Under the pieces are notes generated by a model that was given only the letters and a program-made list of their open reading frames with translations, did not search any database and was not told the DNA's origin. Positions 1,295-56,159 of a stretch of DNA of 56,587 nt are shown here, in pieces (positions within the stretch are counted from its first letter, which is position 1; each line of letters begins with the position of its first letter). This DNA is from a virus (taxonomy: Duplodnaviria; Caudoviricetes). Position numbers and translations under genes: made by a program. Location: positions 1-56,587 of the IMG/VR virus record IMGVR_UViG_3300047198_000034; one strand, 5' to 3'.

Positions 1295-1977
1295 GCGATT
1301 TTTTCAGTCATCTTCTGAGGTTCAGGAACATCCAATGAGTCAGATTCCATCTGAATATATTGACGGTAAGCATTGTCTTCCGATAAATTCTTATCATTTT
1401 GGTCTGCAACAAGAAATTCATCCAACGTACTTAAATGTGTTGCGATTTGCCAAAATTCCTTTACGAGCCTTTTAATCTCTGTCATGATTTCATCATGCCG
1501 TTTATTAAGATATTCTACATATCTTCCGGTAATATCGACGAAGGTTAAATTTTCCGGTATCTCAAAAACTTTATATTTAGGGACTTCGACTAATTCAGTT
1601 TGTATGGCTTTAATCGGCATATTCTTAATTGGTTTTGGTTTCATTTTTCCCAATTCCCTTTTACCCCTACTCTTTATAAGAGCTCGATTCTTCAGTTCTG
1701 CCTTTTCTTCCTCCGTGAGATTCTCATTCCTGATCCGTGCGATCGTTCCCTTAGCTACGCCCGTTTTTTTGACGATCTCCCTCACGGAATGAGTTCTCAA
1801 AAGGGCCTTGACTTTTTCTTCTTTTTCTGGCTTCAGGTAATTTGGCATAGTCTCCTCATCGATGGCTTCCGGCTTTACTTCCCTTCCGCACATGTGGCAT
1901 ACATTCCTTGCTGGGTAAATGGCGTATGCTGGATGGTGTATGATTAATCCTCCGCAGTGTCGGTATGGGCATTTCAA
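1291..1977 (-). CDS. HTH DNA-binding protein with N-terminal Cys-rich segment
   Basis: CPYRHC...CHMC; HSVREIVKKTGVAKGTIARIR helix-turn-helix. Confidence 0.55.
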   Translation of the reverse strand: MKCPYRHCGGLIIHHPAYAIYPARNVCHMCGREVKPEAIDEETMPNYLKPEKEEKVKALLRTHSVREIVKKTGVAKGTIARIRNENLTEEEKAELKNRALIKSRGKRELGKMKPKPIKNMPIKAIQTELVEVPKYKVFEIPENLTFVDITGRYVEYLNKRHDEIMTEIKRLVKEFWQIATHLSTLDEFLVADQNDKNLSEDNAYRQYIQMESDSLDVPEPQKMTEKIA

Positions 1978-3977
1978 TGGTCACTCCATTTTTCAAAGCA
2001 TAGAACCTCTTCATAATCTATTCTCGGAGCCCCCTTCGACTCAGCCAGTCTTCTAAAGAACGACTTTCTCTCAACGGATATTTCCTCATCCTCTCCGGTG
2101 ATGGTGATTTGTTTTCCAAATGATTTGACCAACATCGCTTTGTGACGACAGACAAGTTTAAATCCTACACTTTCACAAAGGGTTTTCCATCTTCCTGGAA
2201 AATCAACGATGGCCCCTTTTTTACAATATGATTTCGTTACCCAGATCGCATGGCCCCCAGGCTTTAAAAGTTTATAGCATTGTTCAAGGATGATCCGGGA
2301 GGCTGACCAGAAAGTGTCGGGTGGGACATTACCTAAATTGCCTTGATCTCTTTGGGTAGGCCAATAGTTGCGCGGTTCTCCTGAATAATTAGTTAATCCC
2401 TTATACCCATTTCGAGATGATCCACCATCTTGCCGAATATCTGAATATGGTGGGCTACTCACCACGGCATCGAAGGAGCCTTCGGGCATCTTGCCAAGTT
2501 GGCCAAGGGAATCAGGATATCCTGTCCATTTATGAGTCATTTTAATAAGTGCTTTATCACTTCTACCAGGATGAGATTTACGTTGACCTTCTATAAATTT
2601 CTGTCTTTCTTCATCAGTCATCGGCTTATCGGTAGATGTTTCCGCATACGGTGGTGACGAGCATATCAAATCGAAATCCCCTTCTTTTAATGAACCGAGT
2701 TGGCCTTCGGAGGATCCATAATCTTGACTATGAAGTTCTTGAGTTCGACAAAAAGCCTCGAATGAAGCACCACCACCTTGAGATCGGTAGGTTTTATATT
2801 GCTTCTTACGATCAATGGAAGGACTATTCTTTTGGATAGACTGTTCAGCGTAGGGAGGTGATCCCACCACCAGCTCAAACTTCCCCTCTTTGAGATTGGC
2901 AAGAGAAGATTTCCAGATTTTTTTATGAATGATTTGACCTATAACGTTGTGGCTTACCCCATATTCCTTCGCTAAGATTGAATAGCTTGTATTCCCTTTT
3001 GAATATTTTTCTCTAATCTCTGTAACCTGCACTTCCGTTAATTTAGCCCTACCATGATTCTCACCCTTTGCCTGATGAAGATGTTTATTGAAAATTGGAT
3101 TTCTGCCTTTATCAGAAGAGTCCTGCCAATTATCCTGCATTGTTCCGAGGAATAAATGGTCTGGTCTAACGCACCCTGGATTGTCACAATGATGACAAAC
3201 CATTAAGCCTTCAGGAATAGGACCAAAATGGATTTCCCATGAAATACGATGGGCAGAGATTTCTTTTCCATCTATTAAAATCCTTCCATATCCTTTATTC
3301 TGTTTTTTACCTTTCCATTCCCAACAGGCATCCGCCTTTATAACTTTTGCCCAAAATCTATTTTCAAGATCAGAAAGTAAAAAGTGTTCAAAATTACCCT
3401 CCTTCAAATTTGCTAAGTTGCCAGGGGTGTGACCATAGCCGTCCTGCATGGCATCAAGGTTTCTATCGTCCTTCCGGCCACCCTTCCTTGTTGGTGTACC
3501 TCCGTGACCCAATCCTTCATGATATGGTGGACTCGATACCACCAAATCCGCTTGGTTTAGAGTCCCACGCAGCCCCGACTTTGCAATATCAGAGGGTCCC
3601 AAGTTACGGGCATTCCACATCACCTCCCTTAAATTTCTCGAATCCCCCTGCACAATCCTTGCCGTTCCAAGGTTAGGCCAACCCTTGAGTTGACGGTTCC
3701 AGAGGTCGATGTTCTGCTGGCCAAGGGAGACAAACTTTTCCTCAAGTTCAACAGCCAAAAAGTTTAGGCCGTGGCACATGGCATGAAAACCAAAGCCACA
3801 GATTCCGCCAAAGGGATCAAGGACATAATCCCCCCGCTTTACCCATCCCATGTTAATCGCATGGTCGTAAATCTTGCCGGCAAGGGAGAAGGATACCTTG
3901 GCCGGATGACTGAAAGCCTCTGGTACAAGATTCTTACCCCATGGAATTGAATAACAATTTTCCCAAATATCGGTCAT
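1974..3977 (-). CDS. Amino (N4-C/N6-A) DNA methyltransferase with four SPPY modules and an in-frame HNH endonuclease domain
   Basis: SAM-binding VLDPFGGICGFG; SPPY x4; HNH CWEWKG...AHRISW...VCHHCDNPGCVRPDHLFLGT..DN. Confidence 0.85.
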   Translation of the reverse strand: MTDIWENCYSIPWGKNLVPEAFSHPAKVSFSLAGKIYDHAINMGWVKRGDYVLDPFGGICGFGFHAMCHGLNFLAVELEEKFVSLGQQNIDLWNRQLKGWPNLGTARIVQGDSRNLREVMWNARNLGPSDIAKSGLRGTLNQADLVVSSPPYHEGLGHGGTPTRKGGRKDDRNLDAMQDGYGHTPGNLANLKEGNFEHFLLSDLENRFWAKVIKADACWEWKGKKQNKGYGRILIDGKEISAHRISWEIHFGPIPEGLMVCHHCDNPGCVRPDHLFLGTMQDNWQDSSDKGRNPIFNKHLHQAKGENHGRAKLTEVQVTEIREKYSKGNTSYSILAKEYGVSHNVIGQIIHKKIWKSSLANLKEGKFELVVGSPPYAEQSIQKNSPSIDRKKQYKTYRSQGGGASFEAFCRTQELHSQDYGSSEGQLGSLKEGDFDLICSSPPYAETSTDKPMTDEERQKFIEGQRKSHPGRSDKALIKMTHKWTGYPDSLGQLGKMPEGSFDAVVSSPPYSDIRQDGGSSRNGYKGLTNYSGEPRNYWPTQRDQGNLGNVPPDTFWSASRIILEQCYKLLKPGGHAIWVTKSYCKKGAIVDFPGRWKTLCESVGFKLVCRHKAMLVKSFGKQITITGEDEEISVERKSFFRRLAESKGAPRIDYEEVLCFEKWSDH

Positions 3978-13328: not shown

Positions 13329-13952
13329 ATGAGAAATAATTACAATCATTGTAGGATGTGGGGGTTCGATGAAAGGCTGAATGAGAGAATTGGAATTGAA
13401 CTAAAAAGGAAACGGAAATCCACTGGAATGAGTCAGCAAGAATTAGCCGAAAAAGTGAAAACAACACAGGCCACAATATCAAGAATTGAAAGAGCGGTGG
13501 ATAACATCACAATGACAAAACTTATTAAATACCTTAATGCTCTTAATATACAACTCTTCATTAAATTTCCTCTTAATGGAGATGATAAAATATTCGAAGA
13601 TCATATTCCTACAAGTCAAGATATATATTATCAGACCAGTTTTGAAAAGGGATTATTTATGATTGGCAATGATTATGCAGGTATTGCAATTGAAGGCAAA
13701 AAACAGTTCTTACCGGATTTGGTTAGGTCTCCTTCAGTCGATATGGGATCTCTTTTTGACGAGGCCAGGTCGTCTTTCAAGAATATTTCGAATGATAAGG
13801 CTGGGTCGGAAAATGACACAGGCGCATCTGGCCAGAGCTTTAAACGTGTCAGAGAATTACCTTTATATGGTGGAGAATGCTCAAAAGTTTCCATCATTGT
13901 CTTTTATCCTGAGATTCGGTATAATGTTTTCAATCAATCCAAGGCTGCTTAA
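13329..13952 (+). CDS. XRE-family HTH repressor
   Basis: LKRKRKSTGMSQQELAEKVKTTQATISRIER. Confidence 0.8.
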   Translation: MRNNYNHCRMWGFDERLNERIGIELKRKRKSTGMSQQELAEKVKTTQATISRIERAVDNITMTKLIKYLNALNIQLFIKFPLNGDDKIFEDHIPTSQDIYYQTSFEKGLFMIGNDYAGIAIEGKKQFLPDLVRSPSVDMGSLFDEARSSFKNISNDKAGSENDTGASGQSFKRVRELPLYGGECSKVSIIVFYPEIRYNVFNQSKAA

Positions 13953-14028: not shown

Positions 14029-14217
14029 GATGGAACTTAAAACTTATTTCGATTTAGCAACATTGTGTGCCGCATTAGCAAATGTTTTTATCTCAATTGT
14101 AAAAAGAAATTGGTATTCATTTGCAGGTTGGGGGGCTGTCGCTTTTATGGCGGTTAGAAACTTACTTCCTATTATTGGGAAATAACAAGAATAAAATTCA
14201 TCTAAAGGAGAACTAAG

Positions 14218-15844: not shown

Positions 15845-16153
15845 CTCTTTATCTCCTTTGGATTTTTACTTTATTATTTGTCAGAAAAAATATATCATAA
15901 ACAGCATCGCAAAACTCAAAGGTCCATGGAACACTTGTTGACGTAGAGGATTTAAAATAATATCCATAACCCCCTACAACAACGGGATTTTCAGGACTTG
16001 AAAGAACCCATATCATTAAATATTGCTTGTCTGAACCCCTATAAATGAGCGAAACACCATATTCTTGACATATAAATTCGTCAAACTTCTCGAAGGGACT
16101 GAACTCCCCAAGGATGACGGCCAGAAGTAAAATCATTAAAGTTATGATCTTTT

Positions 16154-29207: not shown

Positions 29208-29711
29208 CTACCTTACAACATCTGGACATTTTCTAATTCCCTGCTCGATTTTATCCCTAAGACCCCTTGTTGCTGTTCTAAACCCCGGTCTCATAAACGA
29301 TTGTCTTTTCATTTTCACCGTTCCATATTCAAGAAAATGCGCATAATTTACTTTTTTATTACCGGCATATACTCTTACATTCCCAGGACGTTCTGGTTTA
29401 TTTACTCGCCTAATCGAATTTCTTAAAGAACCAGGTTCGCGGCCCGTCCATTGTTGAGCCTGAAATGAGACACGTTGACGAAGATGTTCGGGTATTTTTC
29501 TGCGGTTTCTGGTCGTAGGAATAAAAGAAACATTTTTCATAACAAATCCGCCTTTACGGCTTATTTCCCCTACTGGACATAAACCTTTCGATGCGGAAAC
29601 CACATCATCCATGATCTCATTCACCGCTTCGATGGCCCTGCCTTTTATTTCGTCACATATATTATTCAATCTCCATCCTACGATTCTCATAATTTGCCTT
29701 GACTTCTGCAA
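29208..29711 (-). CDS. HK97 gp10-like tail component
   Basis: GSLRNSI...YAHFLEYGTVKM...FMRP. Confidence 0.85.
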   Translation of the reverse strand: MQKSRQIMRIVGWRLNNICDEIKGRAIEAVNEIMDDVVSASKGLCPVGEISRKGGFVMKNVSFIPTTRNRRKIPEHLRQRVSFQAQQWTGREPGSLRNSIRRVNKPERPGNVRVYAGNKKVNYAHFLEYGTVKMKRQSFMRPGFRTATRGLRDKIEQGIRKCPDVVR

Positions 29712-29934
29712 TTCATTTCATCTATAATATTTTTAATTCCTTGAGAGAAAATATGATAATAAAACCGGAAAAGATCACATTTGCAGGAATTGAAATTCCA
29801 ATAGAGGGGAAAAAGATTTCTATTCAAGGAATTTATGATCCTGATCATATGTCCTGGAGAGTGCACAAACAATTTGTCCTTTTTAAATTCAAGCAATTTA
29901 TCCATTCTTTTTTAAATACCTTCCATCATTCATG

Positions 29935-30297
29935 TTAGATATCTTCATTATGTTCCTTCTTCGACTTGGAGAGAAAATGATGAAATGTCCGGCAGACTTT
30001 CTTGAAAGTGCCGATTCTATCCTTGATTTTATATTCATTTATTGCCGCCCAGATTGCTAAGTGATTGATATCAATCACCTCTCCCATCCCCACCGTTATT
30101 ACCTGATTCCGTACTTCCATATAAATACTTGCGATATCCTTGTTCTCTTCCTTTAATTCTACCCAACAAGATTCGCATGGTGGTATAGTGGGCGGTGTTC
30201 TTTCTCCATGGGTTTTTCGGCATTCATCACATCCTGTCCAAATGGTTCTGTCTTCCATAATAATCCTGGATGCAGCTTGGTCGTCTGCGAACTGCAC
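29935..30297 (-). CDS. Tail assembly chaperone, frameshifted (GT) part
   Basis: Reached by -1 frameshift from 30303-30761. Confidence 0.7.
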   Translation of the reverse strand: MQFADDQAASRIIMEDRTIWTGCDECRKTHGERTPPTIPPCESCWVELKEENKDIASIYMEVRNQVITVGMGEVIDINHLAIWAAINEYKIKDRIGTFKKVCRTFHHFLSKSKKEHNEDI

Positions 30298-47479: not shown

Positions 47480-47842
47480 TCAAGGATTTATCCCCCCCAC
47501 CCTTTGTTCTTTCCCAATCTCATCCTGATGATACTGGGGCATATGACACGAAGCGCATAGACCTTCACCATTATTGAGATCAATATTCCGCCAGTTATTA
47601 TCTTTGTGGTGAGCGACCGTTGATGGAGTTAGAATTCCTTTTCTTAAACAGGCTTGGCATAAGGGATCACGATGTAAAACTGTTTCTCTCCAATATTTAT
47701 GGGCATTAGAAGCATAATAACTATGCTGCTGTTTTTCTTCGGCTGTATTATAGATTTTAGTTTGTTTAGGTTGATGGAGAGGACACCATTTACCGTGGGT
47801 GAGTAGAACAGAGCATCTTGGAGAGGCACATTGATTATACAA
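47480..47842 (-). CDS. Terminase-associated HNH endonuclease (HK97 gp74-like)
   Basis: VLHRDPLCQAC....STVAHH.....N..GLCASCH directly upstream of terL. Confidence 0.8.
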   Translation of the reverse strand: MYNQCASPRCSVLLTHGKWCPLHQPKQTKIYNTAEEKQQHSYYASNAHKYWRETVLHRDPLCQACLRKGILTPSTVAHHKDNNWRNIDLNNGEGLCASCHMPQYHQDEIGKEQRVGGINP

Positions 47843-49590: not shown

Positions 49591-50103
49591 AGATTCGCAT
49601 TGGTCACCTGGGTTTCATGTCTATAATCGCTCGCACCTTTTTCATGGGTTTCAGAATTGGATTCGCTCGCAATGATCCATTAGGTTTCAGCTTTTTGTTC
49701 GCTCGCATTCCTCATCTGAGTTTCGAATCCGTCATCGCTCGTATTTTTGTTTTGGGTTTCAAGCCGTCCCTCGCTCGCACTATTTTTATGGGGTTCAATA
49801 CTTGACTCGCTCGCAATAAACGATTGGGTTCCAAAGACTCCCTCGCTCGCATTACTTCCGTGGATTTCAGAAATGTTATCGCTCGCAGAGTTATTTTGGG
49901 TTTCAACTTCAACATCGCTCGCAGGGGCCTCCTGGGTTTCAAGACGGTAATCGCTCATCCTCTACACTCTGGCCTCAATACTGGGAGAAGGCGCACTCAG
50001 GACTTGGATTTCAACCTCTTCATCGCTCGCACTAATTTGCTGGATTTCAGGGAGGGGGTCGCTCGCATTTGTTAACTGGGTTTCAATCGTTAACTCGCTC
50101 GCA
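49591..50103 (-). ncRNA. TIGR-type dual-repeat guide array 2 (14 in-phase units, one degenerate)
   Basis: Same repeats; 36-nt phase kept through the degenerate unit at 49951-49995; first units overlap the tas 3' end. Confidence 0.92.
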
Positions 50104-50915
50104 TTCTCCCAATAAAAGGGTTGAATAATGTTCGTATGCCCCATCAAAGCTCCTGTATAAGGTTCTGATACTGTCTTACCCTCAAGAGTCCTTGCAACTG
50201 TCCACCAATGAGCCAGAAATATCTTGACCACTTCATTTTTGGCTGCATTATGAACATGTCCCTTTTCCCATTCAGGATGATTCTTTTGATGCTTCGCCTT
50301 ATGTTGTAAAAGCAGGGCCTTATATGGATGATCATCTTTTTGTCTATTGAATTCCTCACCAATATGAAAACCCACCGTCCGCCCCACCGTTGACCAGTTT
50401 GACAAAGTACCTTTTTTCCGCTTTGGCATAACACCCTCAACTACATGTCTTCCCATATAGGCCCACCATTTTGATATTGTTGGGAAGTCCTTGTACTCCA
50501 ATCGATGCTTCAAAAGACCTTCCTTCGCTGTCTTTCCACAATCAACACATTTTAATTTATGCTCATTCTTTTCCAACTTGCCGCCGCAGTCTTTACAGAC
50601 CGGAATGAATCGATAATAAAACAAAATTATCATTTGGGCTGCAATATAAGGCCCGATTCCTGGTATTTTCTTTGCCCATAATTCCCAAATATCCCATTGC
50701 TTCAACTCCTTTTCAATTTCTCTATTAATCCGACCTTTTACTGTTTCTAATCCTGCCTCTGCCTTTTGTCCCTTTAAAAGCGTATCAAATTTTTCTTCCC
50801 GTTTTTCTCCTGGTAAAGATTGAAGCCTCTGTTTTGTTGATGCAATTAATTGAGTAACCCCTTGATATGTCCTTACCAAAAAATTCAAATATTTTATTCC
50901 CTGTTCGTTTGTCAT
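49962..50915 (-). CDS. tasA: TIGR-associated Nop-domain protein without nuclease (TasA-like), with a Zn-ribbon insertion
   Basis: Coiled coil, then IPGIGPYIAAQMI, FPTISKWWAYMG, PKRKKG...NW, HPYK, GHVHNAA...KIFLAHWW; no N-terminal DEDD RuvC and no HNH motif; flanked by arrays. Confidence 0.82.
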   Translation of the reverse strand: MTNEQGIKYLNFLVRTYQGVTQLIASTKQRLQSLPGEKREEKFDTLLKGQKAEAGLETVKGRINREIEKELKQWDIWELWAKKIPGIGPYIAAQMIILFYYRFIPVCKDCGGKLEKNEHKLKCVDCGKTAKEGLLKHRLEYKDFPTISKWWAYMGRHVVEGVMPKRKKGTLSNWSTVGRTVGFHIGEEFNRQKDDHPYKALLLQHKAKHQKNHPEWEKGHVHNAAKNEVVKIFLAHWWTVARTLEGKTVSEPYTGALMGHTNIIQPFYWENASELTIETQLTNASDPLPEIQQISASDEEVEIQVLSAPSPSIEARV

Positions 50916-52497: not shown

Positions 52498-52833
52498 TTA
52501 GACCTCCTTCATTAATTCGGGATTGGAATAAATATCGCCGATGACCTCACCTGTGAAATAGGCATAGAAATTTATTTGATATAGAGATTGCTTTGGTTTA
52601 GCAATAAAACCAGAGGAATCATTGCTCATTTTATAAATAATCTCACAAATATCGCCATTAGGAATCTTAACAATATCCCCTTCATAAATCTCCTTGCCAT
52701 TCTTATCGAGGAGGCCGATGAACTGCATAAGTTCATAATATTCAGGACGACAACGGTAATCAATGTCTTCTAAATCAAAATACTCCATTTTATTTTCCAA
52801 TTTATTCCATGCCCTAAATTTTATCTCTCTCAT
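52498..52833 (-). CDS. YopX family protein
   Basis: MREIKFRAW...LMQFIGLLDKNGKEIYEGDIV...EVIGDIYSNPEL. Confidence 0.92.
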   Translation of the reverse strand: MREIKFRAWNKLENKMEYFDLEDIDYRCRPEYYELMQFIGLLDKNGKEIYEGDIVKIPNGDICEIIYKMSNDSSGFIAKPKQSLYQINFYAYFTGEVIGDIYSNPELMKEV

Positions 52834-53229
52834 TCAGATCTCCTGAATTATGATCTTTCCTTCTCTTCCCCAAAGTTTGGTTATGTGGATATCATAAATC
52901 CCTGAATCGTCTGAATAAATTGCGTCTGAAATTCCTTTCCCCAAATTATCCCAATCCGGTGTTTGCATATGGGGCTTACCATCATATTGTAGTTTTTTCT
53001 TCTCGCTCCACGAATCTGGCATCGGCAGAACAAAAGTAACATGGCTCCCATAACAAGGCAGCACGACTTTTTCTAATCTACATTGAAGACAAAAATCTCG
53101 ATATTTCTTTACCCGGGGGCGTGAAGGGTCAAGCCACTTATCTCTTCTCGTCATCCTGGGTTTTGCGATGGGAATGATGGAATATTCTTTTTTCATCTTC
53201 TTATCAGGGCAAAATTGCCTGTTAATCAA
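52834..53229 (-). CDS. rusA: RusA-like Holliday junction resolvase
   Basis: PIAKPRMT...FVLPMP.SWS...PDWDNLGK.I.DA...DD..I. Confidence 0.85.
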   Translation of the reverse strand: MINRQFCPDKKMKKEYSIIPIAKPRMTRRDKWLDPSRPRVKKYRDFCLQCRLEKVVLPCYGSHVTFVLPMPDSWSEKKKLQYDGKPHMQTPDWDNLGKGISDAIYSDDSGIYDIHITKLWGREGKIIIQEI

Positions 53230-53371
53230 TGGTTATCTTTTAAATATGAGACATCTCCAAATCTGTCGAAACAAACCTCTGCCTAAATGGATATGCAAAT
53301 TTTTTCCTGTTCGTCTTACTTCCCATTCATCGTTTATTTTCCTCATCTTAAACATATTGAACCTCTAAAAA

Positions 53372-53457
53372 AGATAACCAGCGGGTCGAGGCGAGCATCA
53401 ATGTCCCGCTACTAAAGGTAAGAGTGAATGCTCGCCGCCTCACCCTTGACGTTATAC
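53372..53457 (+). repeat. attC site 1
   Basis: AGATAAC...GGGT(C)GAGGCG...CGCCTCACCC...GTTATAC. Confidence 0.8.
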
Positions 53458-53694
53458 GTATTGATTAAAAAATCTTAATAAGAAAGTGATTCTCATGCGT
53501 TGATTGAATCTATTATCAACCAATGCAGATCTTAAACCTGTAACCCGAACGATCCGATATGGATATGGACAAAAGTAATCTCCACATGAGCAACAAAGTC
53601 GATGTCTCCAAATAAAAGAAAAAAGGCGTATAACAAATCGCTTGAGCCGATGCGAAATAGCTCTTATAGTTTTATTTTCAGTTCTGTGGCGCAC
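53452..53694 (-). CDS. Cassette ORF, hypothetical
   Basis: Stop TAA coincides with the TTA of the attC core. Confidence 0.45.
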   Translation of the reverse strand: MRHRTENKTIRAISHRLKRFVIRLFSFIWRHRLCCSCGDYFCPYPYRIVRVTGLRSALVDNRFNQRMRITFLLRFFNQYV

Positions 53695-53714
53695 GGCTCA
53701 CCTCATCGTTATGT
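53628..53714 (+). repeat. attC site 2
   Basis: GTATAAC...TGAGCCG(A)TGCG...CGCACGGCTCA...GTTATGT. Confidence 0.8.
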
Positions 53715-53909
53715 TGATCTATGATTCCATGCCTTAACTGCTAATTGTTTCGTAGATCGTATAAAATAAGATTCTGCACAAGATGAATATGGGCAAGATA
53801 TATCCCATAAATCTTCTGCCATCTGAGTCAAGGTGGGTTTACGGCCACAAAAGGGGCAACCCAACATAACAACCGGCTGCACTTGACCGTGATTAGCTTT
53901 CTTTTTCAT
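53709..53909 (-). CDS. Cassette ORF, Lar (restriction alleviation)-like Zn-ribbon protein
   Basis: CPFCG...ISC...C.....AVKAWN.R. Confidence 0.7.
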   Translation of the reverse strand: MKKKANHGQVQPVVMLGCPFCGRKPTLTQMAEDLWDISCPYSSCAESYFIRSTKQLAVKAWNHRST

Positions 53910-53948
53910 TATACCCCCGTATCCGGCAAGTGAGCCGGAATGTTAGCA
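53864..53948 (+). repeat. attC site 3
   Basis: ACATAAC-AA-CCGGCT(G)CACTTG(A)CCG...CGGCAAGTGAGCCGG-AAT-GTTAGCA. Confidence 0.88.
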
Positions 53949-53949
53949 C

Positions 53950-54282
53950 TCAAGCCTGTATCCTCTTCAATTCTTCTTCGGCTTTCTTGGTGCGTTTCTC
54001 GAAATCGGCCCAATATCCAGCAGCTTCATTCCGCAATGCCGCAATCTTTAGGTATGCCAAATGGAGCTTGTCGCCGTTCTCCAATGCCTTTTTGTCGCAT
54101 TCGTGGCAATACAGTCCATCACCGCTCCCGGAGAAGTGAACACCATGTTCGTACTCTATCGCGGCAATCTTCGTGCAATCGTAACAAAATTCTTTCCCAC
54201 AGATGATGCACTTTTGATATCCACTCGCCTCTTTTCCGCATATGTCACAAAATGTCCTTTCGACTATCACTTGCCTTTTCAT
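53950..54282 (-). CDS. Cassette ORF, Cys-rich Zn-finger protein
   Basis: CDIC...CIIC...FCYDC...YCHEC. Confidence 0.65.
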   Translation of the reverse strand: MKRQVIVERTFCDICGKEASGYQKCIICGKEFCYDCTKIAAIEYEHGVHFSGSGDGLYCHECDKKALENGDKLHLAYLKIAALRNEAAGYWADFEKRTKKAEEELKRIQA

Positions 54283-54319
54283 TGTCCATCTCCTTTCGGA
54301 ATTAAGAAATCTAAAAACG

Positions 54320-54404
54320 TGCTAACAATCGCTTCGAGAGGGACGCATGATAGTTGGGTGCTATGGCTTCTCTGTGCCTGCGCCCCTCAAGCGAAGTGTA
54401 ATAA
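54320..54404 (+). repeat. attC site 4 (R' degenerate)
   Basis: TGCTAAC-AA-TCGCTT(C)GAGAGGG(A)CGCA...TGCGCCCCTCAAGCGA-AGT-GTAATAA. Confidence 0.82.
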
Positions 54405-54871
54405 CTTTCTCAAATTCCTTAATTTCCATATCATCCTCCTTTCAAAAGAAATTAAAAGCGGCATAGATCAGACGCTGAATAGCCCTTGTCATTTTTAACC
54501 ATCCTCTCTCCGGCGCAGATCATGCCGGATGTTATTCGTTCCACATCCATTTCCAGATACTTCTAATAAATAACCATGTCACGCAGGCAGCGCCTCCGAA
54601 TGCCATAAGGAAAATGCCAAGAACCACCATCCCTAAGACTCCGATTGGATTCTCAAGTTCTATTTCCACTGGTTATCTCCTTATTGAAGCAATGATTTTA
54701 CTTTATCTAAAGAGGGGCCAGCGACTATCTTCTGGAGAACTCCCTTAATATCAACCTCTCCTTCGGGAAGTAGGATTTGAAAAACGACTTGCTCCCGGCT
54801 TCTATGGTTAAAAAATTTCTTATCATTGCCATCCCGTACTTCCTCCTCAGAAATCTCAATCTTGAATCGTT

Positions 54872-55123
54872 TCATTTTCGTTCTCCTTCTACTTTCTCAT
54901 AAGTTGCTTCAAAAATATCTGGCTTACAAGGATATCTTTCTCCCTTTATCCCCGTAATAATCCAATCTCCAGGAGTTACTTCGTGGCCCTCTTTTGATTC
55001 AACAGTACCAATGCTAAATCCGGTCGGAGACTTTAAATCTTCTTTTATCCCATCAGGCCATGGTTTAACTGTTGGAATAAATAACGATGCTTCGATCACC
55101 ACTGGTTTCTTTCTAAATTTCAT
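54872..55123 (-). CDS. Conserved small phage protein
   Basis: MKFRKKPVVIEA...PGDWIITGIKGERYPCKPDIFEATYE. Confidence 0.8.
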   Translation of the reverse strand: MKFRKKPVVIEASLFIPTVKPWPDGIKEDLKSPTGFSIGTVESKEGHEVTPGDWIITGIKGERYPCKPDIFEATYEKVEGERK

Positions 55124-55610: not shown

Positions 55611-56159
55611 TTAAGATGGCGGCTCAAATCTTTTTTTCAACCCCAAAAAGCATTCTAACTGCCCCTTTAAAATCCAATGCCATCCTTCCCAATTACAGAT
55701 TCGGATCTTTTCCTCATCTGTGGGCAGATTTTTTAGGGTTTCCCAACAAGTATTATTATCCAGGATTCTATTTTTGAATTTCTCAAGGGGTGGCATATCA
55801 GCCCAAAACTTCCTAGAAAATGGAAGAATAAGTGTTGAAATCCACTTAGCGGAAATATCAAATATAAAATTAAAAATATATCCGCCTGCCTCGATAGACT
55901 CGCCTGCCTTGATAGACCCGTCTGCCTTGATAGACCCGCCTGCCTTGATAGACCCGCCTGCCTCGATAGACCAGCCTGCCTCGATAGACCCGCCTGCCTC
56001 GATAGACCCGCCTGCCTCGATAGACCCGTCTGCCTCGATAGACCAGCCTGCGTCTAATAGAATCGATATTTCAAACTTCACCAATGTTTTAAAAAATAAT
56101 ATTTTTTTATCATAATCCTTATATTTCTCTAAATCCTTTATTGTTTTAACTACATCCAT
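55611..56159 (-). CDS. Phage protein with SIEAGG hexapeptide repeats
   Basis: About nine 18-nt units at 55882-56050 encoding SI(E/K)A(G/D)(G/W). Confidence 0.75.
   Translation of the reverse strand: MDVVKTIKDLEKYKDYDKKILFFKTLVKFEISILLDAGWSIEADGSIEAGGSIEAGGSIEAGWSIEAGGSIKAGGSIKADGSIKAGESIEAGGYIFNFIFDISAKWISTLILPFSRKFWADMPPLEKFKNRILDNNTCWETLKNLPTDEEKIRICNWEGWHWILKGQLECFLGLKKRFEPPS

Follow-up and report, generated by a model that had tools for sequence, protein, structure and literature searches.

Sequence evidence for an attI-anchored integron cassette array with mirror-coded genes in a tailed phage

The window analyzed here is the whole stretch of 56,587 nucleotides, which belongs to a tailed phage from freshwater sediment. 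In its early, nin-like region, minus-strand genes of phage type (RusA and YopX on the left, a relative of phrog_419 at 54872-55123 on the right) continue on both sides of a series of small ORFs alternating with attC sites (Table 1). Integron attC sites range from about 57 to 141 nt in length. Four imperfect palindromes of 85 to 87 nt lie within 53372-54404, at the positions where a first-pass annotation had placed the attCs of a presumed cassette array. Of the R''/R' ends attributed to them, AAC is present in 4/4 sites, but GTT in three of the four, the right box of E4 being GTAAT. A DNA search of the array region against 50,697 phage records gave no match.

TABLE 1 Features of the array region in the window
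Feature	Coordinates	Strand	Details
RusA-like Holliday-junction resolvase gene	52834..53229	-	Pfam PF05866, 46.8 bits; phrog_140
attI-like site	53201..53232	+	Ends at G of the first G↓TT crossover; conserved 35 nt reach 53235
Cassette A, 219 nt	53233..53451	+	40-aa ORF 53233-53355 on the minus strand, plus attC E1
attC E1	53372..53457	+	R2 14.3 bits, E 0.36; fold z -2.64
Cassette B, 257 nt	53452..53708	+	Putative 80-aa ORF 53452-53694 on the minus strand, plus attC E2
attC E2	53628..53714	+	R1 29.7 bits, E 2.8e-6; R2 28.3 bits, E 1.5e-4; fold z -1.93
Cassette C, 234 nt	53709..53942	+	Lar-like ORF 53709-53909 on the minus strand, plus attC E3
attC E3	53864..53948	+	R2 20.5 bits, E 0.012; fold z -5.12
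Cassette D, 456 nt	53943..54398	+	110-aa ORF 53950-54282 on the minus strand, plus attC E4
attC E4, defective right box GTAAT (G at 54398)	54320..54404	+	R2 13.6 bits, E 0.52
E5, fifth attC remnant	about 54459..54537	+	Left box eroded; right box G↓TTATTCG, G at 54531

The identity of the attC sites was assessed with two home-made covariance models, R1 and R2, used in place of that of IntegronFinder. R1 was derived from four class-1 attCs and gave a single match in the whole window, E2 on the plus strand. R2 was derived from 23 attCs of Vibrio, Shewanella, class-1 and phage TJE1 arrays, whose limits were set by eye and motif because minimum-energy picking over-extended many sites. It recovered 5/5 held-out class-1 sites, and its control matches at E ≤ 1 were all on the array strand (42/42). 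In the window E2, E3, E1 and E4 ranked 1, 2, 3 and 5, all on the plus strand and none on the minus strand, so that the array elements were matched by an attC model as the first-pass annotation had anticipated. The E-values of R2 are rough, and E1 and E4 score weakly; these two sites and E5 are backed by the chain of boxes described below, by a homologue in phage L001 and by recurrence in other contigs. An earlier strict geometric scan made by hand found E2 and E3 only, plus false positives, and was replaced by the covariance models; a MAFFT alignment of the four sites was unusable as a basis for a model.

Fold energies were computed for the plus strands as single-stranded DNA relative to 200 shuffles each. 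E4 gave a z of -3.69, and E5, which was unscored by R2, a nonsignificant -1.32. Other weak R2 matches (14198, 5224, 39214 and 44570) showed no folding beyond that of shuffles (z -0.3 to -1.4), and we discarded them. In the imperfect hairpin of an attC, the R''-L'' arm carries extrahelical bases, the central spacer is unpaired and the terminal loop varies (Nivina et al. 2016, PMC5027507, in the part consulted). In E2, E3 and E4, the 5' arm of the plus strand follows the pattern AAC-N8-extra base-N6-extra A, and in E1 only the first of the two extra bases is present. All class-1 controls read on the coding strand (6/6) share the full 5'-arm pattern.

The boxes of successive sites form a chain. 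As had been claimed, the left box of each site repeats the right box before it in exact reverse complement, over 10 nt (G↓TT core 53232 with the left box ending at 53378), 8 nt (53451 with 53634), 9 nt (53708 with 53870) and 8 nt (the E3 core, 53942, with E4 at 54326), while off-diagonal pairs match over 4 to 5 nt only. The whole window holds 247 GTTA...TAAC pairs spaced 100 to 600 nt apart, five of which match over at least 8 nt; four of these are the consecutive array junctions, and the fifth lies at 47594/47721. Because each left box is complementary to the core at the start of its own cassette, the crossover position in the array is G↓TT. The pairing spans the ORF rather than joining boxes beside one attC, which does not fit bare attC-only elements inserted between phage genes. 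The chain is symmetric under strand reversal; therefore, it carries no polarity information by itself and other evidence is needed for that purpose.

Shine-Dalgarno motifs precede 4/4 ORFs of the window. The cassette A ORF has AGAGG upstream of its ATG, and the putative cassette B ORF has its start and Shine-Dalgarno sequence inside E2, with GAGGTGAGCC before a GTG; Pfam and PHROG searches returned no homologue or family match for either. The cassette C ORF starts in the E3 loop. The Lar-like character ascribed to it was borne out by profile matches, although that to PF14354 is barely above the cut-off (29.2 versus 28.6 bits; phrog_599, 5.6e-6), and its predicted product is 33% identical (E 4e-10) to that of an 83-aa ORF in the attI-proximal cassette of L001. 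The 110-aa protein of cassette D combines a double zinc finger with a long helix and has 21 homologues with 44 to 83% identity, in which Cys is invariant or nearly so at eight positions and an SGSGDG motif is near-invariant. Its AlphaFold model (mean pLDDT 84.7) had no match in the PDB at E ≤ 0.001, the weak top rows being PHD and ZZ fingers. Three of the minus-strand ORFs end at 53233, 53452 and 53709, the first base after the G of each G↓TT, and thus do use the core TTA as their TAA stop, as first proposed.

The first-pass annotation had reported the array to be devoid of both attI and intI. The former statement has to be corrected: a conserved stretch of 35 nt at the left of the first G↓TT (53201-53235) contains an attI-like site, recognized by homology. 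Its 32 nt are 32/32 identical to positions 79851-79882 of G003:C22, a contig of a Gammaproteobacteria metagenome-assembled genome (MAG), and an IntI match of 434.8 bits lies 109 nt away. An alignment of three phage and three MAG copies shows 32 invariant columns between flanks that are unrelated on both sides. Of the 19 attI-like copies in the three MAGs, seven have an IntI match that starts 109 to 127 nt away and is in every case divergent from the site; the curated cut-off is exceeded by four of these seven matches. The suggested search for similar sites in bacterial genomes was thus fruitful, as integron-integrase genes in MAGs adjoin the same sequence as that found left of the first core in the phage. 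The MAGs are labelled as three different phyla, so the attI names no host. The RusA protein provides no host call either, since its relatives, at most 57% identical, belong to very different taxa.

The statement on intI stands for the record, which is about 70% complete by CheckV: no TIGR02249 match was found in it at E ≤ 0.001. The RusA gene occupies the place that intI has in bacterial integrons with the same attI. CALINs are defined as at least two attCs on one strand, less than 4 kb apart and with no intI nearby (Cury et al. 2016, PMC4889954, in the part consulted). The window has four plus-strand attCs within 1.03 kb and no intI match in the record. Owing to the attI site, this array is anchored rather than a bare attC cluster, and, as in normal arrays, the core at attI is an orphan and a complete attC closes the far end. 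Judged from its sequence, the phage stretch thus carries a genuine integron cassette array of four or five cassettes, anchored at attI and without intI.

Cassette genes are coded on the attC top strand, a rule tied to their expression from Pc. The reversal of ORFs noted in the first-pass annotation proved real against controls: in the window, 4/4 ORFs lie on the minus strand, opposite to the plus-strand attCs. In 12/12 cassettes of the window and of the phage contigs L001 and L146, the ORF runs in the direction of the phage genes and occupies the bottom strand of attC, versus 2/45 reversed and 43/45 canonical CDS in control arrays. The Fisher p is 1.3e-10 for the full set of 12 and 1.6e-6 for the six ORFs that have a family match or homologues, namely the 110-aa family, the Lar-like ORFs of the window and L001, HNH, and the PAPS_reduct and N6_N4_Mtase ORFs of L146. 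A further phage contig, L172, enters the polarity analysis by its two attC polarities only. Its minus strand has a 127-aa ORF that runs across attI and one attC, and the 83-aa ORF on its plus strand is unrelated to that of L001. Loci L114, L117 and L120 were found through the 110-aa protein and are biased toward reversed polarity because the query is itself the product of a reverse-coded cassette gene. ORF counts on the cassette side of the MAG attI copies were too noisy for polarity and were dropped.

Relative to attI, the attCs have normal polarity, their top strands reading away from it. Inversion of normal cassettes by top-strand recombination would flip attC relative to attI, and such a flip was found in 0/14 sites, so this origin was rejected; top-strand recombination is the opposite-orientation route of Nivina et al. 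2016 (PMC5027507, in the part consulted). As for a Pc promoter, a sigma-70-like scan of 52700-54900 returned five sites versus 4.6 expected, none of them at attI.

The window, L001, L146 and L172 share the attI site and have different cassettes. L001 shares a backbone junction with the window, and in the comparison of relatives called for by the first-pass annotation, homology breaks exactly at the core TAAC/G↓TT, next to which L001 has a different cassette. In metagenome contigs, many continuations occur at this core, at least seven different ones behind 53234-53238, and the contig depth at the 35-nt attI is 64 to 111, versus 5 to 31 on neighboring RusA-side bins (runs X2 and X3). Starting at the attI core, the chain of boxes runs over 10, 8, 9, 8 and 8 nt in L146 and 10, 10 and 10 nt in L001. 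On the intI side, the breakpoint differs in each phage and the 35 nt are invariant; in L146, a portal gene lies on the attI side.

Single sites recur as well. E1 has a homologue at 955-1037 of L001, 83.5% identical over 85 nt, with homology limited to the stretch from TAAC to GTTA. A search of IMG/VR for the E1 arm pattern found L001's contig only, and variants of E1 and E3 are present in other contigs (run X5 records 28 and 29, and run X2 records 5 and 6, respectively). The E5 stretch, 54459-54533/4, recurs with seven to nine differences in X2, X3 and X5 contigs, preceded by letters that end in ..GCTAACAA or ..GATAACAA, and the homology ends at the core. These E5 copies sit behind a proper ..TAACAA box. 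A joint of 54555 to 54641 was seen in one contig, with a shorter side of 24 letters, and was disregarded. Array parts without contig cover in X3, X4 and X5 were not counted as absent.

These comparisons bear on whether the array is a passive relic, i.e., a piece of a bacterial integron with attI and cassettes that was caught by illegitimate recombination and is now inert and decaying. The lack of an intI match in the record is in keeping with such a relic, and the defective right box of E4 together with the erosion of E5 fits decay at the array end far from attI. Illegitimate or off-target recombination has also been discussed as a route into phages (Qi et al. 2023, PMC9892861, in the part consulted). 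Against this, four phage contigs have the same attI followed by different cassettes, with the chain intact from the attI core in each, and the limit of the phage sequence on the intI side varies around the invariant 35 nt. Moreover, cassette polarity is normal in the bacterial integron that has this attI, whereas each of the 12 phage cassettes whose ORF could be read is reversed, and their genes are of phage type. Neither the cassette differences nor the uniform reversal would be expected from one capture with subsequent decay, and we regard a relic as unlikely.

We find it highly improbable that the polarity is ordinary, with the opposite strand being the one that the integrase of this class of integron folds and cuts; the minus strand would then show the normal layout of ORF, stop codon in the inverse core and attC. 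The symmetry of the box chain would allow it, and the phage-sense strand does mimic a cassette, with a Shine-Dalgarno sequence and start after GTTATG and a stop in CATAAC (L045; L120). Nevertheless, attI is at the left end, and the attCs lead away from it as in the bacterial integron, with only the ORFs differing; in G003:C22, the ORFs share the strand of the attCs and also point away from attI. In L114, the GTTA on the right-box side of R2 is conserved and the other boxes are degenerate (GAATGAC, GCATGGC), which fits crossover at the right box of R2. The arm that bears the extra bases, the same as in all controls, and the location of the orphan core and of the full attC similarly argue against it.

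Slightly less probable still is an assembly chimera that joined a phage to a bacterial integron at an abundant 35-nt repeat. In X2 and X3, this segment is indeed covered 4 to 10 times as deeply as the sequence on either side, with contig breaks at 53201 and 53235; because of this repeat the assemblies are broken, and no single contig of the runs examined spans RusA, attI and cassette A. However, record 9 of X3 bridges RusA and attI, record 3 of X2 bridges attI and cassettes A to D, and the same layout is seen in L001, L146 and L172, from two other IMG/VR samples. In addition, minus-strand genes of phage type carry on to the left and to the right of the array, and the cassette ORFs are co-oriented with them. 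Ordinary intergenic hairpins of the phage, such as terminators or regulatory stem-loops with a chance likeness to attC, would suit the location of the sites between small genes but are hardly credible, given four consecutive exact chains of 8 to 10 nt versus one other such pair in the window, matches with two independent attC models, only four R2 matches in the RusA neighborhoods of other phages and bacteria (967 kb), one terminator-like site in the region versus 1.9 expected, and an attI common to the window and integrons.

Phage CALINs have already been published (Qi, Rajabal, Ghaly, Tetu, Gillings 2023, Front Microbiol, PMC9892861; here and below, for the part of that article consulted). 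Like the window, they are attC clusters without intI inside phages, some have their own attI, as in Shewanella prophage M16-3, and their cassettes include DNA-methyltransferase cargo, as in L146. Qi et al. suggested that phages thereby access cassettes that help overcome host defense, and 5/6 phage attCs recombined with attI1 under IntI1 in their work. TJE1, described there as a typical cassette-array structure, has attCs and ORFs on the same strand according to our own check, made on a subset of the 17 phage CALINs of that article; in the window, in contrast, every readable cassette is mirror-coded. Unlike in those CALINs, the window attI is common to four phage contigs and to bacterial integrons, and relatives differ by whole cassettes. 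Neither the attI anchoring nor the uniform mirror polarity was found in the articles retrieved, for the parts consulted.

The closest bacterial counterpart is the integron of G003:C22, with its relatives in G002 and G004. It has the identical 32-nt attI core, a chain from that core of 9, 9 and 6 nt and the same attC polarity relative to attI, but differs from the window by the presence of intI (434.8 bits versus a cut-off of 265), by its ORFs on the attC top strand and by an Mrr_cat restriction-endonuclease-like cargo. Reverse-oriented chromosomal cassettes usually have their own promoter or toxin-antitoxin genes. One phage example is the methyltransferase at 29527-30195 in the array of Vibrio phage p16, whose ORF lies on the attC bottom strand as in the window; in the controls, such cassettes are rare exceptions (2/45 CDS). 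SALINs, in which cassettes are inserted at attG sites outside integrons, resemble the window in that their cassettes lie away from the integrase and are expressed by neighboring promoters, but their junctions are short 5'-GWT-3' secondary sites, as opposed to a conserved 35-nt attI (Loot et al., 10.1101/2022.09.11.507474, in the part consulted).

Site identity, polarity, the common attI and the different cassettes at one conserved junction in related phages are shown by the sequences. The reading that we consider likely is that a host IntI, acting in trans, shuffles accessory genes of the phage in an attI-anchored, mirror-coded array made by IntI-type recombination. An infected or lysogenized host would supply the integron integrase, which would insert and excise cassettes at attI and attC, and the phage lineage would gain a swappable set of small accessory genes. 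As the genes are on the attC bottom strand, they would be read by the phage's own leftward transcription, whose direction is deduced from gene orientation, through the array toward attI and RusA. Only cassettes in the mirror orientation would then be expressed and kept, and such selection might account for the uniform polarity.

More tentatively, the phage lineage might keep a stripped-down “mirror integron,” with the attI core as the only surviving part, a resolvase in the place of intI, a phage-specific pool of bottom-strand cassettes and the integrase of the host. The polarity would let phage transcription express the cargo, and the sense strand, which is rich in G, would be the recombinogenic bottom strand. 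Provided that replication proceeds in the same direction as transcription, this strand would be the lagging-strand template, where attC folding and excision would be most frequent. The locus may then be a fast-shuffling counter-defense locus that mirrors the defense cassettes of bacterial integrons with the same attI.

Integrons are seen as bacterial devices. Here, phages hold the integron's own docking site along with cassettes that uniformly break the top-strand rule. The cargo, with its Lar-like, DNA methylase, PAPS-reductase-like, HNH and zinc-finger products, resembles accessory or counter-defense genes, and some of it may have anti-restriction or counter-defense roles. The array provides a handle on the origin of cassettes, since mirror cassettes cannot be inverted copies of normal ones, and on a second question, whether the pace at which cassettes turn over depends on strand and replication context. 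Should a host integrase act on the phage and the bacterial arrays alike, phage and host would share one recombination system on opposite sides of their arms race.

The four imperfect palindromes reported by the first-pass annotation (E1 to E4) were recovered at the same positions, and as single-stranded DNA their folds were better than those of shuffled sequences (z -1.9 to -5.1). The box chain is also exact: each G|TT core is the reverse complement of the left box of the next site, over 10, 8, 9 and 8 nt. Non-partner boxes in the window array have 4-5 nt in common, no more. Of 247 GTTA...TAAC pairs spaced 100 to 600 nt apart in the whole window, five match over at least 8 nt, and four of these are consecutive array junctions. 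Three ORFs do end in the cores, at 53233, 53452 and 53709, each the first base past the crossover G; E4 has GTAAT rather than GTTA as its right box. In the Lar-like ORFs and in an 80-aa ORF, both the start codon and the Shine-Dalgarno motif lie within an attC loop or arm (53864-53948 and 53628-53714; 1258-1378 in L001, another phage contig), so their translation starts could be masked by the attC hairpin in the mRNA.

Bona fide control arrays came from four records that Qi et al. 2023 name: E. coli P1 phage class-1 arrays, phage TJE1, a Shewanella M16-3 integron and CALIN, and a Vibrio phage p16 chromosomal-integron fragment. All six class-1 attCs show, on the coding strand, AAC, 8 nt, one extra base, 6 paired nt and an extra A. 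This geometry is present on the window + strand in E2, E3 and E4, and E1 has only the first extra base. A covariance model from four near-identical class-1 sites (R1) hit the window just once, at E2 on the + strand (29.7 bits, E 2.8e-6). A second model from 23 sites of four origins (R2) recovered all five class-1 sites that had been held out, along with additional sites from Vibrio and Shewanella, and its control hits at E <= 1 were all on the array strand (42/42). With filters off, R2 found all four window sites on the + strand and none of them on the minus strand; a spurious + strand site at 14198 (13.7 bits) scored between E1 and E4, which are weak if judged alone, and the E-values of both home-made models are rough. 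In 967 kb of RusA neighbourhoods, scanned as background, R2 made just four hits, two pairs at two loci.

Coordinates of features in the window and at related loci (R2 scores in bits)
Feature	Location	Strand	Observation
667-aa protein	1974-3977	-	HNH-endonuclease matches, residues ~200-360; DNA-methyltransferase matches, residues ~47-153 and 490-580
CI-like repressor	13329-13952	+	On sole + strand island; GC skew sign also switches there
Box pair	47594-47721		Sole other window GTTA...TAAC pair with 8-nt exact reverse-complement match; boxes 127 nt apart; directly upstream of large terminase gene; no R2 hit
317-aa protein	49962-50915	-	phrog_4285 match ("transposase", integration and excision; 1.5e-21); no Pfam family match; 2.3 kb off array
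RusA and YopX genes	52498-53229	-	Left flank of array; RusA at 52834-53229
Putative attI	53201-53235		Left end of array
E1	53372-53457	+	R2 14.3
E2	53628-53714	+	R2 28.3
E3	53864-53948	+	R2 20.5
E4	54320-54404	+	R2 13.6
E5	54459-54537		Probable fifth attC, left box eroded (approximate ends)
Run of small ORFs		-	Right flank of array
182-aa protein	55611-56159	-	GGSIEA/GWSIEA-type six-residue repeat run; sole family match a weak FapA beta-solenoid (20.5 bits, under cut-off)
L146, two attI-like copies	G001:C1:15836-15870, 16082-16117		246 nt apart on one phage contig; 80-aa Cys-rich ORF between them
L114 (phage)	1341-1922 (RuvC-like)		DnaC-like and RuvC-like genes; R2 hits opposite to 110-aa homologue
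L117 (phage)			Terminase genes downstream; R2 hits opposite to 110-aa homologue
L120			R2 hits opposite to 110-aa homologue

The first-pass annotation had seen no attI. BLAST of the region against L001, which carries the closest RusA relative (60% identity), returned RusA, E1 and a 35-nt match (91%) over 53201-53235; the core TAAC is the exact point where homology begins, and the adjoining cassettes are unrelated. A pattern search for this site retrieved two contigs from viruses and three large ones from bacterial metagenome-assembled genomes (MAGs). In a Gammaproteobacteria MAG (G003), the 32-nt core is identical to that of the window, and 109 nt away is a divergently oriented integron-integrase match (434.8 bits; cut-off 265). 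Among the 19 copies in the three MAGs, seven sit close to where an IntI match begins, at 109-127 nt, all divergent; four of these matches exceed the curated cut-off, two of them with a stop codon, and the remaining three are N-terminal fragments. When three phage copies were aligned with three from MAGs, 32 columns proved invariant. The cassette-side flank is unrelated among all six, and the intI-side flank is common to the MAG copies, with a different break point in each phage; in the window, the integron platform stops at 53201, where the RusA start region begins. By its sequence, 53201-53235 is attI-like, with a core shared with a site near IntI. The MAG labels span three phyla, so they identify no host. 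One of these genomes (G002, labelled Nitrospinota, 8.3 Mb) has 12 integron-integrase matches over the curated cut-off, three with internal stop codons, many fragments and seven attI-like copies; either it is unusually integron-rich or the bin is mixed.

The array region occurs in freshwater-sediment metagenomes. In four runs (X2-X5), which show presence only because all are contigs, depth over the 35-nt attI reached 64-111, against 5-31 in neighbouring RusA-side bins (X2, X3). There the left flank of attI is similar to the MAG spacer between intI and attI, and behind 53234-53238 the contigs run on into at least seven different sequences. Contig ends fall at 53235, 53703, 53850 and 54404. Segments like E1, E3 and E5 recur in other contexts with 7-9 differences, homology stopping at the boxes. 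Other E5 copies are preceded by ..TAACAA, which points to E5 being a fifth attC with an eroded left box in the window phage. One X2 loose end at 52875 and the first 50 nt of L120 resemble sequencing-adapter sequence.

The box chain alone cannot orient the cassettes, being symmetric under strand reversal. Four further lines of evidence are mutually consistent: R1 and R2 both call the + strand; the extra bases occupy the 5' arm of the + strand, the arm that carries them when the controls are read on their coding strand; an orphan core stands at the left end of the array and a full attC at the right; and, most decisively, attI is at the left end. R2 is unswayed by ORF direction, since it called the array strand on both sides of a reversed methyltransferase cassette in the Vibrio array. 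This makes the + strand the attC top strand and places all four window ORFs on the bottom strand.

The bacterial integron in G003 (contig C22) provides the normal arrangement at the same attI: its array, whose box chains measure 9, 9 and 6 nt, leads away from attI, and its three ORFs, one Mrr_cat-like, are all on the attC top strand. The phage attCs likewise point away from attI (four sites in the window, three in L001, five in L146 and two in L172, counted for attC polarity only), and their chains are intact (10, 8, 9, 8 and 8 nt in L146; 10, 10 and 10 nt in L001). In contrast, the phage cassette ORFs lie on the opposite strand, co-directional with the flanking phage genes. The reversal proposed for the window held in 4/4 cassettes, and likewise in L001 (3/3) and L146 (5/5). 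Six of the twelve have family or homologue backing (110-aa zinc-finger family, Lar-like in the window and L001, HNH, PAPS_reduct and N6_N4_Mtase); the other six, two of them in the window, are called from an open frame, with a Shine-Dalgarno motif in the window. Control arrays have 43 of 45 CDSs on the top strand (Fisher, p = 1.3e-10 for all twelve; 1.6e-6 for the six supported).

We found 21 full-length homologues of the 110-aa protein. When 38 metagenome loci were turned so that the homologue read on the + strand, R2 made five hits (E <= 1), every one on the minus strand; because the search started from a reverse-coded cassette gene, the resulting set (L114, L117, L120) is biased towards reversal. 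A further locus, L045, found via RusA, has two attCs in the orientation opposite to RusA. In L114 and the window, which are unrelated phages, a Holliday-junction resolvase gene (RuvC-like in L114, RusA in the window) lies within ~1 kb of reverse cassettes; this closeness may be no more than the usual accessory-gene position in a nin-like region.

The window is an IMG/VR record classed as linear (56,587 nt, ~70% complete) encoding a large terminase, portal, major head protein, tape-measure protein and CI-like repressor, with nearly all genes on the minus strand. The phage is probably temperate. Neither an integrase nor a tyrosine recombinase was found in the ~70% of the genome that the record represents.

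Integron arrays in phages are already known: Qi et al. 2023 (PMC9892861) report three complete integrons, one In0 and 17 CALINs among 10,705 phage genomes, and recombination of five phage attCs by IntI1. The literature covered on integrons, attC, orientation and phage anti-defence, Qi et al. 2023 apart from its supplements and the polarity of its other CALINs, contained neither an attI-anchored phage array lacking intI nor uniformly bottom-strand-coded cassettes.

Replication offers one reading of this polarity. Of 56 one-kb windows, 54 have G in excess on the sense strand; if the G-skew reflects replication, attC bottom strands would be on the lagging-strand template, where Loot et al. 2017 found excision to be higher, and the opposite arrangement is found in 25 of 30 chromosomal integrons. 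Because phage skew is confounded by transcription, we offer this as a hypothesis, weaker than one based on expression. Normal cassettes can be inserted inverted via top-strand recombination, as described in Nivina et al. 2016 (PMC5027507); that route would flip attC along with the ORF, and no flip was observed, which indicates that mirror coding is intrinsic to the phage cassettes. As for expression, the phage would read through the array in the direction of attI, and translation would be limited to bottom-strand genes. We take the uniform polarity to reflect expression.
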